Assembly (NCBI GenBank): GCA_034717975.1
Contig: JAYEMF010000144.1
Span: 1-29,748, forward strand
Length of the DNA: 29,748 nt
Direction of reading: 5' to 3'
DNA from: Campylobacterota bacterium
Lineage (GTDB): Bacteria; Campylobacterota; Campylobacteria; Campylobacterales; Sulfurimonadaceae
This document shows positions 24,001-29,748 of this stretch, in pieces. Within the stretch, counting starts at the first letter, position 1, and each line of letters starts with the position of its first letter. The position numbers are program-made.

Positions 24001-27000
24001 CAGATAGGATGCAAAGATATCGGGATAGGTAAATTCACTCAGGGACGCTATCAAGGCCGCATCCAGCTCCGGAGAGTAGATAGCGACTGACTTGTCCAGC
24101 TTGTTCTGCTTCAGATAATAGAGTGTAGCCAGGGTGTTGAAACCCAATCCAAAGCAGATATCCAAAACCGTGATAGTCTGCTTATGCTGTTGGGTAGAAA
24201 AAGCAGGGATGACATGCTTGTTGAGCGATTCGTTCAGAGCCCCGTCGCTGGTGGAGTGGTAGTGTTCATCATATTCGGAAGAGTAAGCGGTAAAGCTGCC
24301 ATCCTCACTTTGGACCATTGTATGTTGCTGATCGTTAAACATTTATCTCCCGTCATTCCTGCGAAGGATATCTCCCGTTAAAAAAAGGTGAGTGCCCTCA
24401 CATTTTTAGGGAGTAAAGTAAGATTAATAGGCTAAGATTCCTGCTTTCGCAGGAATGACGGACCTCATAATAGATTTACAGCCCGTTACCCCACATATGC
24501 ATCTTTTTGGCCATTACCAGATCATACTCCTCGAAAATATCTATTTGATTGGCTGCGCGATACTCCGATTTTTCCAGATCTTCGTACATCTTAACGATAT
24601 CCATCTCCCCTTTGGGAACAGTAATAATAACTTCACCTGTATTGGCCAGTGTCGTATAACAGGCTTTCAAAATACGTTCCGGAGAGGTATGACGATGAAA
24701 AACATCGTGGAGAATAACAATATCATTGTCCCGAGGTAGTGCCCTGAAAGGTTTGGCAAAATCAGGTACTGTATGCAGTTTCAGATGTTCGGAAGCTTCA
24801 AAGTGTTGATGCTCACCCGGGAATAGAGAAAGAGAAAGCCGTCCATCATAAGGGATAAGAAAATCAATAAGCAGCTGTGTCAATGCATCGGCATGCGTTG
24901 TGACCTCCAATAGTTTATATCCCGGTTGCGGATGGAATAGCTCTAAAAATTCTCTGTGTTCTTTTTTTTGAGAAGGGGAAAGAGGAAAGTGGGAAGAGGA
25001 TGGTGTACTTATCCTGTTTTGCTCTTTCTCTTTCCTCTTCACGATTTCCTCTTTCCTAATCATTAAATGGCCAGTTCATTGAGCTCTTTAAATAAAAAGG
25101 CCTCGACAATATCATCAATACTGCGCTGCGTATGGGCAACAAGTACCATTACCTGCTCTTCGATGAAGGACATTACCGGTTCAAAATCATTCGTGACGAC
25201 AACTGCTTCAACCCACTCTTCAATAGCTTCACGGGTGTCATAATATTTGATCTCGACTACCTGACCCTCTTCGAGAACAATCAGTGCCCATTTTTTCACT
25301 TCGTTAATTGAAACAAGTCTTCCTTCTTGCGTATCGTCACTGTCCATTGGGAGTAAAATGTTCATCAGAGTCCTTCAACCTTCGACATATCAAGTTTTAA
25401 AGCATCGTTATCCATCACGCCGATACCGGCATTTAGAACATCGTTTGCAATCTCTTTGGCATCTTTAAGCGAATGCATCTTGTAGGTACCGCACTGATAG
25501 ACATTGAGTTCAGGAATATCATTTTGGTTCTCAACTTCCAATATATCTTTCATTGACGCTTCCCAAGCGTTGGCTACCGTTGCTTCATCCGGTTCACCGA
25601 TCAGGCTCATATAAAAACCTGTCTGGCAGCCCATCGGTGAGAGATCGATGATCTCGACCGTATCTGAGTTGAGATGATCACGCATAAACCCGGCAAAGAG
25701 ATGTTCGAGTGTATGGGCACCTTCCGTACTCATCTTCTCTTTGTTCGGCTTGTAAAAACGCAGATCAAATACAGTAAGTTTGTCACCCGATGGCGTCTGC
25801 ATCCCTTTGGCACGGCGAACTGCCGGAGCAGGCATAATGGTATGATCAACGGTAAAACTGTCCAGTAGTGGCATTTTCTTATCCTGATAATTTTTAAGTA
25901 TGGTAGCAAGTTGCTCTTTAAAGCAAGATAGGTATAATTTTCAAAAAGAAAAAAGCAAAATTATGACAAGTTTATTTGACGAAAAACATGCCTCCACTTT
26001 GAGTTCCAAACTGGCGATGCGTGTCTATACCTCACGCCTTTTGGGCCAGGATGCCGACCTCGTACTGCATGGCGGCGGTAACACCTCCGTAAAAATCGAC
26101 GATACGATCTATGTGAAAGGGAGTGGATGGGATCTCTCTTCCATTGAAGAGCCCGGCTTTTCACCCGTTGATCTTGGCATACTTCAAAAGATGGCAACAC
26201 GTGATCATCTGAGCGATACACAGATGGTAAAAGAGCAGCGTGAAGCCCTAAGAGACAGCAGTGCCCCCAATCCTTCCATCGAAGCGATCCTGCACGCGAT
26301 TATCCCCTTTGAGTTTGTAGACCATACCCATGCCGATGCAGTAGTCACCCTTTCCAATACCCCTGATGGCAAAGCACTTATCGAAGAGGTATATGGCGAC
26401 ACTGTACTTATCATCGATTATGTCATGCCAGGTTTTTTACTTGCCAAAGATATCTATGAAAAAACTAAAGATATGGACTGGAGCAAACTGGAGGGGATCG
26501 TTTTACTTAACCACGGTATCTTCACCTTTAATGATGATGCCAAAAAAAGCTATGAGAAGATGATCGAGCTGGTCACCAAAGCTGAAGCCTATATCTATGA
26601 AGCCGCCCTGCTCTTTCCTAAATGTATCTCCGGCGAGATCAGACCCGCTATGCTTGATGAACTTCAAAATGCGGTCTCAAAACTGCGCGGTACAGATATC
26701 ACCCTAAAAGTCATCGACACCATCGACACCTGCACACTATCAAAGCGGCTCAACATCGAGGCTATCGTTCATCGCGGCGGTCTGACACCGGAACATGTCA
26801 TCCGCATTAAACCATTTCCAGCCATTATCGAAAATGACGTTCAAAAAGGCCTCGACAAGTTCGTCAGTGACTATAAAACCTACTTTCGGGAAAATGCCAC
26901 CGATACACATATCTGCCTTGATCTCGCCCCCCGCTACGCTATTGTCAAAGGCGCCGGAGTCGTTACCTTTGGAAAAGATGATAAAGAGGCCAGTGTCATT

Positions 27001-29748
27001 GGTGACATCGTCGAACATACGGCAAAAGCGATGCTTACTGCTGAACATCTTGGCGGATGGCAAAGTCTTAAGCCAAGTGATATTTTTGATATGGAATACT
27101 GGGAACTAGAACAAAATAAACTAAAAAAATAACATCCAAACTGTTATTCCTGCCTTCAAAGGAATGACAGAAAATGAAAAGGAGAGACTATGAAAGTCAC
27201 TAAAAAAGTAACATTTATCGCTAAAGAAGGGCATGAAAAGCAGCTCTCTACCCTTCTCAATGAGATGATCACACCATCACGCAACGAACACGGATGTCTG
27301 CTTTACGACATTTTTCAGTATGAAAGTGATTCGAAAAAGTTTATCGTGATCGAGTCATGGGCAGATGAAGAAGCACTTGATGGACACAAGCACTCTAAGC
27401 ATTACCTGCACTACAAATCACATTATGAAGTGCATACCGATGATAAGTTTAGTGATAATCTTAATATTTTGGGAGATCTTTTTTAAGAATGTCTATCGAC
27501 GATTTTCTTTCTTTTTTATTCCGAAAAAAAGAAAGAGGGCACGTGTGTCCAATGCCATTTCAAAGCATTGGATGAAGAAAAAATACGTTTACCAAAGCTC
27601 CGCGGATTCAATTAGTTAGAAGTGCCTTAAAAGTATCAGGCTGACAGTTATTGTCATAGCCTATGAAACTACATACGCTGTACCCTCATGCCATAAAAAC
27701 TCAAACGTCAGCCAAATCCAAAGACAGCAAAAATTACTCAGACCACAACCGAGCCTATGTAACTAAACAGACACCCTTCCCGAACAGCCAAAAAAATGTT
27801 TTTTTGTTTCTTGTTTTGCGCCAAAAAAAGAAAGAAGAGACTTCTATAAAAAACAGTTAGCTCAACACTTCCAACTCATCACTATATTTTTCCAAACAGT
27901 ACTGCTCGTAACTCGACTTATACACCTTATAGTGTGCCGTACTCTTATGGCCATCAAGCGCCTTTTCATCTCTCCACGTCTCTACCGCCATAAACTTTTC
28001 AGGTCTGTTTTCATACTGAAAGATATCGTAAAAAATACATCCATCTTCAGCTTTTGACGGCTCTACCATTGCTGTTAAAAGCTCTTTCATTTTAGCAATG
28101 CCATCAGGTTTTGCAATAAATGTTACACGTTTTGTTATTGTCATATTTTCCTCTTTAAATAATTATAGGCCCGGAGCTTTCCACATCGATGTAGTTACCC
28201 CTGCATCGACCAGTGCCAACTGAGCAGCATAGGCATTTTGCCACTGCTTTGAAATCTCCAGATATCGTTTATGATTTTGTAAATTTGGTTCATACGTTTT
28301 ATCCCAACTCACCAAAGATGTAGCTGCCTCTTCGATTGAACCATAGGTACCAACCGCTGTTCCAGCCGCAAAAGCACCACCAAGGGCGGTGGCTTCATTA
28401 ACAGCCGGGATTTTGACATTTTTTCCAGTTACATCAGCTAATATCTGGCTCCAGAGTTTTCCCTTGCTGGCTCCACCGGCAAAAGTAATCGTATCGGTAC
28501 TCACTCCGGTAAATCTAAAGATCGCTTCCAGATTCAACATCGAGACAATGGCCGCATTCTCTTCAAGCGAACGAAACATTGCCGCTTTCGAGCCAATTGC
28601 CGGATCAATAGAGAGGTTTAAGAATGAAGGGGCCGCGTGATACCATTTTCCGTAGTGCATTGTATCGGAAAAGATCGGTAAAATCCCATGTGAACCAACG
28701 GGTACATCAGCGGCCATTCTTTCTAGAAGCTCATAAGGGTCTATTCCCATCTCTACGGCACGCTTCTTCTCGTCCTGTGCCAATGCATCACGAAACCAGC
28801 GCATGATCAAACCGGAAAAAAAGGTAATCCCTTCTGCCTGAGAGATACCAGGGATGACATGCGGATTGATACGGATATCCATCGTCGGATCTGTTTTGGC
28901 CGTCGGCATATTGACCAGCTGCTGCCAGAATGTGCCGCCAAGTACAGCAACCTGATTTGGCTTGACAACACCAAGACCTGCACTTCCCAGCTGTACATCA
29001 CCGCCACCCATAACAACAGGCGTCCCTGTAGCAAGACCTGTTTCATCGGCGGCTTCTCTAGTCACTTCGCCTATAATGGTCCCAGGCTCATAAACCGGCG
29101 GAAAGATATCATCTTTCAGACCGACTTCTTTAGCCATCTCAGGCATCCATTGTCGGCTTTTAAGGGAAAAAATACCGCTGGTACCCCCGTTGGATGGATC
29201 CGTAGCAATTATACCGCTTAGTTTTGTCAACGCCCAGTCGCTGATCATATTGATCGAAGCGACTTTCTCATAAATCTGTGGTTGGTTCTTTTTTACCCAA
29301 AGAAGTCTTGGGAGCGCACCAAGGGCGAAGGTCTGCCCGCTGTGTTCATAAAAGCTTCGCTCAGCATCGGGGTAAGTCAGGTTTAGTTCAGCCACCTCCT
29401 TGTCTGCACGTGCATCAACATTGGCTACACCAAAGAGCTCATTGCCCTCTTTATCATAAAGCAGTATTCCCTCACGCATACTGGTTGCTGTTACTGCTAC
29501 TATTTCACTGCTTCGAATACCCGCTTTAGCAATTGCCTCCCGTATACATTCACAGAGAAGTTTCCAATTGATTCTAAAATCAAATCCCATTGAATTTGGG
29601 ACACCCGGCTCACTAAGATGGGTCCACTCCTGCTGTCCAATGGAAATCTGACGCCCTGCTGCATCAAAGATAACAGCTCGTCCACTTCCTGTACCGGCAT
29701 CGATAGTCATAAAGTATTGATTTGGCATTATTGTTCCTTATTAAGAAA

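Follow-up and report, generated by a model that had tools for sequence, protein, structure and literature searches.

Gene content of the locus

In the Campylobacterales genome studied here (G000), that of a sulfur-cycling bacterium with a completeness of 99.9%, five genes are grouped at positions 25365..29728 of the window, i.e., the whole stretch of 29,748 nucleotides that was analysed. These are luxS, a gene for a class II aldolase-fold protein, two genes for ABM-fold proteins and lsrK (Table 1), and the set formed with lsrK and the aldolase gene is referred to below as the module. luxS is divergent from the aldolase gene, abm2 lies directly 3' of lsrK, and the lsrK start is 20 bases from the contig end, so that its upstream neighbours lie beyond this assembly. 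An alternative aldolase start at 25900, which gives a longer reading frame, is unlikely to be real, as the homologues begin at the methionine at 25963. No Rfam match was found in the window, and a promoter and terminator scan gave results at chance level.

Table 1. Genes of the locus with positions in the window, strand and profile matches.
Gene	Product	Position	Strand	Profile matches
luxS	S-ribosylhomocysteine lyase (forms homocysteine and DPD)	25365..25874	-	NF002602, 300 bits (cut-off 197); PF02664
aldolase gene	class II aldolase-fold protein, 389 aa, no SDR domain	25963..27132	+	PF00596; N-terminal part of NF006196
abm1	ABM-fold protein, 98 aa, candidate P-DPD isomerase (LsrG-like role)	27190..27486	+	PF03992; LsrG model, 30 bits (cut-off 135)
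abm2	ABM-fold protein, 95 aa, candidate P-DPD isomerase	27857..28144	-	PF03992; LsrG model, 32 bits (cut-off 135)
lsrK	AI-2 (DPD) kinase	28163..29728	-	NF008187, 852 bits (cut-off 528)

The kinase and the missing Lsr components

The lsrK product is the only FGGY kinase found in G000 (a single PF00370 match). It passes the LsrK profile, the xylulokinase model reaches 182 bits against a cut-off of 380, and all other FGGY models remain under their cut-offs. The protein is 56% identical to E. coli LsrK and 56-58% identical to the E. coli, Salmonella and Sinorhizobium enzymes as a set, and its best structure match is PDB 5YA0 with 642 bits, compared with 98 for the next kinase. The DPD site of LsrK as predicted from homology models comprises T21, S91, M92, R93, D253, V254, F276, Q278, E308 and I310; all ten residues are identical in G000 and invariant across 70 module kinases, save five N-terminal gaps, and three control FGGY kinases keep one to three of them. 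The first-pass annotation had placed a true AI-2 kinase next to luxS, which these data bear out: judged by its sequence, the protein is a true LsrK that would phosphorylate DPD.

LsrB, LsrR and LsrF had been described as absent, with the reservation that an E. coli control did not reach the LsrF and LsrB cut-offs either. This reservation falls away, since the E. coli K-12 proteins pass with 560 bits (LsrF, cut-off 297) and 700 bits (LsrB, cut-off 384). With this working control, none of the 62 LsrK genomes holds LsrF (best 57 bits) or LsrB (best 31 bits) over the cut-off. In G000, the genome in which LsrR was searched for, tblastn detected no LsrF, LsrB, LsrC, LsrD or LsrR, and the profile search gave no PF01791, PF04198 or PF02653 match, so the description of the missing components stands.

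The class II aldolase-fold protein

The aldolase-fold protein scores 81 bits on PF00596 (cut-off 22) and matches just the N-terminal 400 or so positions of the PRK08324 aldolase/SDR models, with 447 bits on NF006196 (cut-off 831) and 197 bits on TIGR02632 (cut-off 568). Its catalytic acid (E107) and three metal histidines (H121, H123 and H184) are invariant in alignments of 107 and 78 homologues. The predicted model has a pLDDT of 95 and its best fold match is 3M4R (Z 30.9), followed by FucA, YgbL and RhaD (Z 17-19); the C-terminal part of the model, residues 243-389, gave no clear fold match in a wide structure search. An SDR half acting in trans was looked for in G000, and no orthologue was found (best matches 27-29% identity). 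The enzyme had been called stand-alone, which is correct for the G000 protein and not for all of its relatives, as 9 of the 61 aldolase genomes carry an SDR tail. The stand-alone forms make up one side of a branch with 100/99 support in the tree, and there were three further, separate cases of tail decay. LsrK over the cut-off was found in none of five genomes outside the phylum with fused homologues, which indicates that the family has other substrates, and the Bacteroidota members lie in an unrelated operon.

The isomerase step

The two ABM proteins share 51% identity and, as previously annotated, match the LsrG model NF007791 weakly and under its cut-off (Table 1). Their match to LsrG (E 5e-4) is weaker than that to uncharacterised ABM structures (E 9e-12). 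We take N25, E54, H65 and H70 to be the active-site residues of LsrG. The last three align with E55, H66 and H71 of the ABM proteins, which are invariant in 63 homologues, a trio also present in a generic ABM protein, and N25 is replaced by methionine. The abm2 subfamily is restricted to module genomes (43 of 43).

The first-pass annotation must be amended in that an unrelated cupin often takes over the ABM step. Among 64 genomes, 33 have only ABM proteins in the isomerase slot, 18 only a cupin, ten both and three neither, and the cupin occupies the ABM slot in 18 of the 21 module genomes without ABM. Both subfamilies are absent outside module genomes. All 28 cupin genomes have the aldolase; the cupin alternates with ABM and not with the aldolase. 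Its ESM Atlas matches were generic cupin clusters only. G000 itself has no cupin and no cupin remnant, neither in the genome nor in the gap between abm1 and abm2; the position of abm2 corresponds to that of the cupin in close relatives (slot comparison with loci L056, L058 and L059).

Distribution and gene order

In a survey of 201 Campylobacterales genomes, LsrK was found over the cut-off in 61, with one further broken copy, and the aldolase in 59 as a full-length protein and in two as a fragment; both occur together in 57, or 59 with fragments counted, numbers that overstate the association as related genomes are not independent. The earlier counts, with exceptions that are 74-90% complete, were thus reproduced; with fragments counted, 59 of the 64 genomes with either gene hold both, and the five exceptions are 80-90% complete. 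A single deletion breaks both genes in G076, where neither ABM nor cupin was found. The module is missing in 137 of the 201 genomes, nearly all of which have luxS, and is therefore dispensable. A phylum-level search revealed no further family, and no copy of the aldolase turned up in two large families (0/46 and 0/43).

Of 51 genomes with a stand-alone aldolase, 31 have it no more than 7 kb from lsrK and 20 do not; among well-flanked GTDB loci, 32 of 39 show this proximity. None of eight fused or decayed aldolases lies as close. No recurrent oxidoreductase or transporter is seen in the neighbourhood of 142 loci when the 32 commonest families are judged from sequence starts. Since 190 of 201 genomes have luxS, a near-universal gene, nothing can be concluded from its presence in LsrK genomes, and the co-occurrence argument made earlier is void. 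Likewise, a comparison of luxS with SahH cannot discriminate, as SahH occurs in 0/201. The statement that luxS lies near the aldolase in 71 of 101 genomes could not be reproduced: it does so within about 3 kb in 4 of 53 aldolase genomes with a listed luxS place, compared by eye (one other genome lacks luxS and seven were left out), and in 23 of 62 similarity-ranked loci, a set rich in Sulfuricurvum. What does support a link to luxS is that physical connections recur in three families and three layouts, for instance the co-oriented run aldolase-lsrK-cupin-luxS-metK in G058 and the neighbouring abm and luxS genes in G085.

Relation to the DHAP shunt

On contig C83, G000 has a separate operon of mtnK, mtnA and a small aldolase gene. 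Canonical methionine salvage was rejected for G000, because no ARD was found and the small aldolase scores 37 bits against a cut-off of 226 on MtnB; the operon reads as a DHAP shunt. A small aldolase lies beside mtnA in all 26 genomes with a stand-alone module aldolase or none, compared with 0/7 with the SDR-fused form (0/8 with decayed forms counted). In these the fused or decayed aldolase itself is beside mtnA in five of eight cases (four of seven for fused homologues alone). The stand-alone form is never there (0/16), and all 16 genomes keep the separate small aldolase. The SDR-fused form thus stands in for the shunt aldolase Ald2, whose substrate is 5-deoxyribulose-1-phosphate according to the available part of PMC10986504, and the aldolase family probably acts on skeletons of the 5-deoxyribulose-1-phosphate type, which correspond to reduced P-HPD.

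Proposed pathway and alternatives

Together, co-inheritance, gene order, active-site residues and controlled absences uphold the core of the first-pass annotation, namely disposal of DPD by LsrK and an aldolase replacing LsrF, without Lsr import or LsrR. We consider it reasonably probable that the module is an importer-free cytoplasmic DPD salvage route, in which LsrK and an isomerase feed a hydrolytic class II cleavage to DHAP and acetate. Pfs and LuxS, whose genes are present and whose chemistry is known, convert SAH to homocysteine and DPD, which LsrK would phosphorylate to P-DPD. The ABM protein, or a metal cupin in other genomes, may then isomerise P-DPD to P-HPD, a 2,4-diketo compound that amounts to DHAP bearing an acetyl group. 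A plain retro-aldol reaction is unlikely, because P-HPD has a ketone at the position of the hydroxyl of aldolase substrates; a hydrolytic cleavage that releases acetate is the better fit. This step would fall to the class II aldolase-fold enzyme, which would bind the DHAP moiety at its metal and cleave C3-C4 of the hydrated ketone in a retro-Claisen reaction, replacing the CoA thiolase LsrF and requiring neither CoA nor an SDR. As no aldehyde would be formed, the SDR domain would be dispensable and could be lost. A precedent is 3-OtnC, a member of Aldolase_II whose 3-acyl-type substrate gives rise to DHAP, as stated in the accessible text of bioRxiv 2025.05.18.654769. Such a module would serve carbon recovery or removal of a reactive diketone, and not an lsr-type sensing circuit. 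Motif matches suggest the presence of TpiA and acetate kinase and the absence of a thiolase.

An alternative that retains classical class II chemistry is that an unlinked reductase turns P-HPD into a 5-deoxypentulose-1-phosphate, which an ordinary retro-aldol reaction splits into DHAP and acetaldehyde. The use of the Ald2 slot by the fused form speaks for it. However, the 16 stand-alone genomes with mtnA keep their small aldolase, as would be expected if the stand-alone enzyme were unable to cleave the hydroxy substrate, no reductase recurs among the neighbours, G000 lacks an orthologue of the SDR half, and RhaEW gave no DHAP without NAD+ and was inactive with NADH (PMC3870299). We regard this alternative as unlikely.

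Somewhat less probable still is that the module mainly scavenges or quenches the AI-2 of neighbours through a non-Lsr carrier, possibly linked to signalling, which would be compatible with DPD salvage. In its favour, three AI-2E-family transporters are encoded in G000, together with an RbsB-like periplasmic protein that is co-oriented with a HAMP-GGDEF protein, and most luxS-bearing relatives are without the module and can be presumed to release AI-2. Against this, G000 has neither a sugar-ABC permease of the LsrC/D family nor an LsrR-family repressor, LsrB is absent throughout the LsrK genomes, no transporter recurs as a neighbour, and there are links between the module and both luxS and metK. 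A similarly low chance is given to DPD being the substrate with different later chemistry, in which either an oxygenase reaction is carried out by the ABM protein or cupin, or P-DPD itself is the aldolase substrate, with products such as phosphoglycolate. An early LsrG study reported 2-phosphoglycolate and a C3 fragment (PMC2728841, as far as its available text goes), the closest structure to the cupin is a quercetin dioxygenase (E 5e-13), and the class II fold also includes dioxygenases and decarboxylases; yet every cupin genome keeps the aldolase, and the alternation of cupin and ABM is expected of two isomerases feeding one cleavage enzyme.

It is very improbable that kinase, ABM protein and aldolase degrade another rare sugar and that the luxS link arose by chance. 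FGGY kinases switch substrate readily, luxS adjacency is the minority state and the Bacteroidota operon is unrelated, but the kinase retains its close identity to known LsrK and all predicted DPD-site residues, no importer for an outside sugar was found, and the luxS links span three families. Finally, that the aldolase is a DHAP-shunt enzyme for MTA and 5'-deoxyadenosine unrelated to LsrK, as fused homologues within mtnK-mtnA operons might indicate, is hardly credible and already largely refuted by the distribution, since mtnA is missing in 37 of the 61 aldolase genomes and LsrK is present in 59, and G000 has its own shunt operon.

Comparison with known systems

The module would most likely be a variant of the known route for AI-2 breakdown, recycling DPD inside the cell without the importer, the repressor and the usual last enzyme. 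With the Lsr system (lsrRK and lsrACDBFG of E. coli and Salmonella, and the Sinorhizobium counterpart) it shares the LsrK orthologue, an ABM-fold protein at the LsrG step and DHAP as the expected product (LsrG/LsrF chemistry in the available part of PMC8016206). LsrACDB, LsrR and LsrF are all missing from the G000 module, the ABM place is often taken by a cupin in its relatives, and the HPr-binding pocket of LsrK is altered (A155 to K, M210 to a charged or polar residue). The last step of the Lsr system uses a class I-fold CoA thiolase, whereas that of G000 would use a class II metal enzyme, from which acetate and not acetyl-CoA is predicted.

RhaEW/YuxG (TIGR02632, PRK08324; PMC3870299) belongs to the same tandem class II aldolase-fold family, with three metal histidines and with DHAP and a carboxylic acid as products, as proposed for the G000 enzyme. 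It differs in its SDR half and in the catalytic acid, reported as Asp for RhaE and Glu in G000, where no rhamnose genes are adjacent. The DHAP shunt for 5-deoxyribose disposal (Pfs, MtnK, MtnA and Ald2/DrdA; PMC10986504, in part) likewise takes a SAM by-product through a kinase, an isomerase and a class II aldolase-fold enzyme to DHAP and a C2 unit. The G000 module has an FGGY kinase, an ABM or cupin isomerase and DPD as putative substrate instead, and its aldolase is 16% identical to DrdA (6BTD). 3-OtnC, which frees DHAP through loss of a group at C3, may serve as a mechanistic analogy; it loses CO2 and not acetate, and what it shares with the G000 aldolase is the fold.

None of the open-access papers listed in the literature search was found to describe LsrK together with this aldolase, or LsrK from these genera, and the available part of PMC3420918 does not mention Arcobacter, Sulfurimonas, Campylobacter, Shewanella, cupin or epsilon. 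New points are the cupin in the ABM slot, the fused aldolase accompanied by the absence of a small shunt aldolase beside mtnA, and the G058 run.

Implications

We tentatively propose, as a possibility that falls short of even chances, that members of the RhaEW/YuxG (PRK08324) family do not pair an aldolase with an aldehyde dehydrogenase; they would combine a C4 secondary-alcohol dehydrogenase (the SDR) with a metal-dependent 2,4-diketone hydrolase (the 'aldolase'). The SDR would oxidise 5-deoxyribulose-1-phosphate to P-HPD, LsrK with ABM or cupin would form P-HPD from DPD, and the two SAM by-product routes would meet there and yield DHAP and acetate. This would account for SDR-less forms going with LsrK and being unable to replace Ald2 beside mtnA as fused forms can, and for the NAD+ dependence of DHAP release by RhaEW and the resemblance of its SDR to sugar-alcohol dehydrogenases (PMC3870299). 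If true, the cupin would be a new P-DPD isomerase, and LsrK may have begun in metabolic salvage, with import and repression coming later.

The findings touch the old question of whether LuxS and AI-2 serve as a signal or a metabolic by-product. The metabolic view can be put directly to the test with a module that has neither importer nor repressor, occurs in about a third of the Campylobacterales sampled and shows links to luxS and metK. Two candidate enzymes emerge, namely a P-HPD hydrolase in place of LsrF and a cupin in place of LsrG, and a testable revision of mechanism is offered for the widespread RhaEW/YuxG family. A further prediction is that abundant sulfur-cycling bacteria with the module would release little AI-2 despite having luxS.

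Gene cluster and kinase

The last 4.4 kb of the window hold five genes, luxS, a class II aldolase-fold gene, abm1, abm2 and lsrK, and the module at this site is real. The window is one entire contig (C144) of the genome G000, which measures 2.52 Mb and is 99.9% complete; because lsrK begins so close to the contig end, absences were checked across the whole genome. The nearest relatives of the aldolase are 76-77% identical and labelled Sulfurimonadaceae.

Genes of the module and luxS in the window
Gene	Position	Strand	Remark
luxS	25365-25874	-	
class II aldolase-fold gene	25963-27132	+	389 aa
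abm1	27190-27486	+	
abm2	27857-28144	-	
lsrK	28163-29728	-	gene start 20 bases from contig end

The kinase was called LsrK in the first-pass annotation, and this identification is borne out by a score of 852 bits on NF008187 (cut-off 528), by 56-58% identity to its E. coli, Salmonella and Sinorhizobium counterparts, and by the ten residues given for the predicted DPD site (PMC8016206), all of which are identical in the window protein. They are invariant across 70 module kinases, barring five N-terminal gaps, and three control FGGY kinases keep one to three of them. The HPr pocket differs at two residues, and a motif search of G000 found no HPr. LsrK is the sole FGGY kinase found in this genome.

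The genes abm1 and abm2 converge on a gap (27487-27856) occupied by a non-coding, dispersed repeat some 350 bp long, which carries A/T-rich hairpins at either end and has imperfect terminal inverted repeats. Another copy occupies the convergent gap after moaA (1262-1575), and 12 other contigs carry 13 further matches, whole or partial, at 75-91% identity; Rfam gave no match for the repeat in the window. It may be a MITE-like element or a mobile two-way terminator. After luxS, at 24476-25365, lie two genes (100 aa and 195 aa) without family matches; in some 20 related loci their homologues keep this place next to luxS.

Absence of the Lsr importer, repressor and thiolase

With E. coli K-12 proteins as queries, LsrF, LsrB, LsrC, LsrD and LsrR were not found in the whole G000 genome, and PF01791, PF04198 and PF02653 gave zero matches there. 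None of the 62 LsrK genomes exceeded the cut-off of the LsrF or the LsrB model (top scores 57 and 31 bits), in agreement with the absences proposed earlier. Doubt had been cast on these cut-offs by an E. coli control that failed them; it is removed by the K-12 proteins, which reach 560 bits (LsrF, cut-off 297) and 700 bits (LsrB, cut-off 384), so the models work. The lsr operon is missing from many E. coli strains, and the genome used as the earlier control was probably one without it. Uptake of outside AI-2 by G000 is possible, given that its genome encodes three carriers of the AI-2E family and, next to a diguanylate cyclase, an RbsB-like protein.

The gene of this RbsB-like periplasmic binding protein is co-oriented with that of a HAMP-GGDEF protein (G000:C64:2310-5729, locus L055). 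No ABC permease of the matching kind was found in G000, and the pair may serve as a sensor of sugar or AI-2 that acts through c-di-GMP.

Co-inheritance and gene order

Among 201 genomes evenly drawn from the order Campylobacterales, LsrK is present in 62 (61 over the cut-off and one broken copy), the module aldolase in 61, excluding two weak matches of about 30% identity, and both together in 59; the five exceptions are 80-90% complete. The co-inheritance described in the first-pass annotation is thus upheld, the counts being no statistical test, as the genomes are related by kinship and not independent. Aldolase presence tracks LsrK (59/61) much more closely than mtnA (24/61). The stand-alone aldolase lies at most 7 kb from lsrK in 31 of 51 genomes and is unlinked in the other 20, which counts against the reading as DPD salvage; lsrK was found in 32 of 39 GTDB loci with at least 3 kb of flank on each side. 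In genome G076, a single deletion broke both aldolase and lsrK, and neither ABM nor cupin was found there. At this locus (L162, G076:C120:1-1190) the deletion fuses the aldolase gene with the end of lsrK, and the module is here seen in decay. Four metagenome contigs of unknown taxon, retrieved with a Shewanella cupin as query, carry lsrK-cupin or aldolase-lsrK-cupin, so that the module probably extends outside the phylum. Against the reading as DPD salvage, the module is missing from 137 of the 201 genomes, nearly all of which have luxS.

LuxS was present in all LsrK genomes tested for the first-pass annotation, and this loses its value as support, since luxS occurs in 190 of the 201 genomes and SahH in none, making co-occurrence with the module uninformative. 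Nor was the reported proximity of luxS to the aldolase (71 of 101) reproduced: luxS adjoins the aldolase in 4 of 53 genomes with a listed luxS position, compared by eye, and lies near it in 23 of 62 loci from a set rich in Sulfuricurvum. Adjacency is a minority state. What carries weight is the recurrence of the link in three families, each with its own layout: luxS and aldolase divergent (the window), aldolase-lsrK-cupin-luxS-metK, all co-oriented (G058), and abm-luxS (G085).

A putative isomerase slot filled by ABM or cupin

Of the 201 genomes, 43 carry the ABM subfamily (taken at E below 1e-20, with three weak matches excluded) and 28 a cupin of 122-124 aa, whose conserved His and Glu residues are of the kind usual in metal sites; every one is a module genome. 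The 64 module genomes divide into ABM only (33), cupin only (18), both (10) and neither (3), the last comprising two incomplete genomes and one with broken genes. In 21 of 27 cases at most 300 bp separate the cupin gene from lsrK, and the cupin is absent from all 22 genomes that carry an ABM with 70% or more identity to abm2. Close relatives carry lsrK-cupin where G000, in which the cupin is absent, carries lsrK-abm2. ABM and cupin therefore look like two unrelated proteins filling one step. By family score the window ABMs are not LsrG and are nearer to uncharacterised ABM structures, so that they are assigned to this step from their context. The cupin was also found in deep-sea Shewanella and Motiliproteus.

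The abm1 product shares 88% identity with the copy at locus L056 but just 65% with its counterparts in the closest genomes, and that of abm2 shares 85% with copies from other genera, hinting that both were recently exchanged.

Aldolase, SDR tail and DHAP shunt

The window aldolase corresponds to the N-terminal portion of the RhaEW/YuxG (PRK08324) family, with E107, H121, H123 and H184 invariant. Its structure model (pLDDT 95) matches best the uncharacterised 3M4R (Z 30.9, rmsd 1.5 over 203 residues), followed by FucA, YgbL and RhaD types (Z 17-19). An SDR tail is attached in 9 of 61 genomes. Seven tails look whole, one ending at a contig edge and one called by frame length alone, and two are decayed, with NAD-binding and catalytic motifs lost, as likewise in a metagenome copy from an aldolase-lsrK-cupin run. 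In a tree of 50 rows, midpoint-rooted for drawing only, a branch supported at 100/99 separates the 32 stand-alone aldolases from the rest, and three changes are needed to account for the three decayed forms.

Fused copies are located in mtnK-mtnA operons, the layout of the DHAP shunt, in which Ald2 cleaves 5-deoxy- and 5-methylthio-ribulose-1-phosphate (PMC10986504). For 34 mtnA-bearing genomes, the presence of a separate small class II aldolase gene within 3 kb of mtnA was scored. This gene was present in all 16 genomes with a stand-alone module aldolase and all 10 without a module aldolase, and in none of the 8 with a fused or decayed form, 5 of which have the fusion itself beside mtnA. The fusion thus probably performs the last shunt step, which the SDR-less form is apparently unable to do. 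Outside the phylum, LsrK was found in none of five genomes with a fused homologue, and these homologues occupy other operons; both count against DPD salvage.

In G000, an operon mtnK-mtnA-small class II aldolase (C83:5566-8488, L052) encodes a divergent aldolase of 208 aa (37 versus 226 on the MtnB model), and no ARD was found in the genome; the operon probably encodes a DHAP shunt whose aldolase belongs to an uncharacterised subfamily. A further gene of the class II aldolase fold, the third in G000 (196 aa; C32:6377-6964, L163), has matches of similar length in many of 34 genomes scanned. At the Bacteroidota loci L065, L066, L069, L071, L075 and L079, a conserved pair of genes (about 287 and 408 aa) follows the fused aldolase-SDR, and a gene for a 256-aa hydrolase-like protein often precedes it, forming a different catabolic operon.

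Proposed route and relation to known systems

LsrG converts P-DPD, the LsrK product, to its 2,4-diketo isomer (P-HPD), whose acetyl group LsrF transfers to CoA, releasing DHAP (PMC8016206). What the analysis shows is which genes and families are present, with their residues, distribution and order; every reaction of the module is inferred, and on chemical grounds P-HPD would equal a C4-oxidised 5-deoxyribulose-1-phosphate. A class II enzyme would stabilise the DHAP enediolate and cleave the hydrated C4 ketone, yielding DHAP and acetate with no redox partner; 3-OtnC, an Aldolase_II enzyme, releases DHAP similarly, via decarboxylation (bioRxiv 2025.05.18.654769). A redox-free cleavage of this kind would explain why the SDR has been lost in genomes whose LsrK provides the substrate. 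Disposal of DPD by the module, with the aldolase-fold enzyme as last step, we consider highly probable; the specific hydrolytic route to DHAP and acetate is favoured with less assurance. The module resembles the processing arm of the Lsr system but lacks its importer, repressor and thiolase, and works in similar fashion to the DHAP shunt; it belongs to neither. No description of it was found in the literature searched, which was mainly open-access.

RhaEW converts rhamnulose-1-phosphate to DHAP and lactate, forms no DHAP without NAD+ and is inactive with NADH; its SDR is closest to sorbose, butanediol and sorbitol-6-phosphate dehydrogenases, and its authors interpreted it as an aldolase followed by an aldehyde dehydrogenase (PMC3870299). 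Sections 15, 18 and part 1 of 21 of that paper contain no free lactaldehyde assay. These data fit C4 oxidation followed by diketone hydrolysis equally well, which we put forward tentatively, at somewhat less than even chances; the NAD+ requirement could also arise if the aldol equilibrium were unfavourable and drawn forward by removal of the aldehyde. If C4 oxidation and diketone hydrolysis is the true sequence, the fused-enzyme DHAP shunt and the DPD route would converge at P-HPD.
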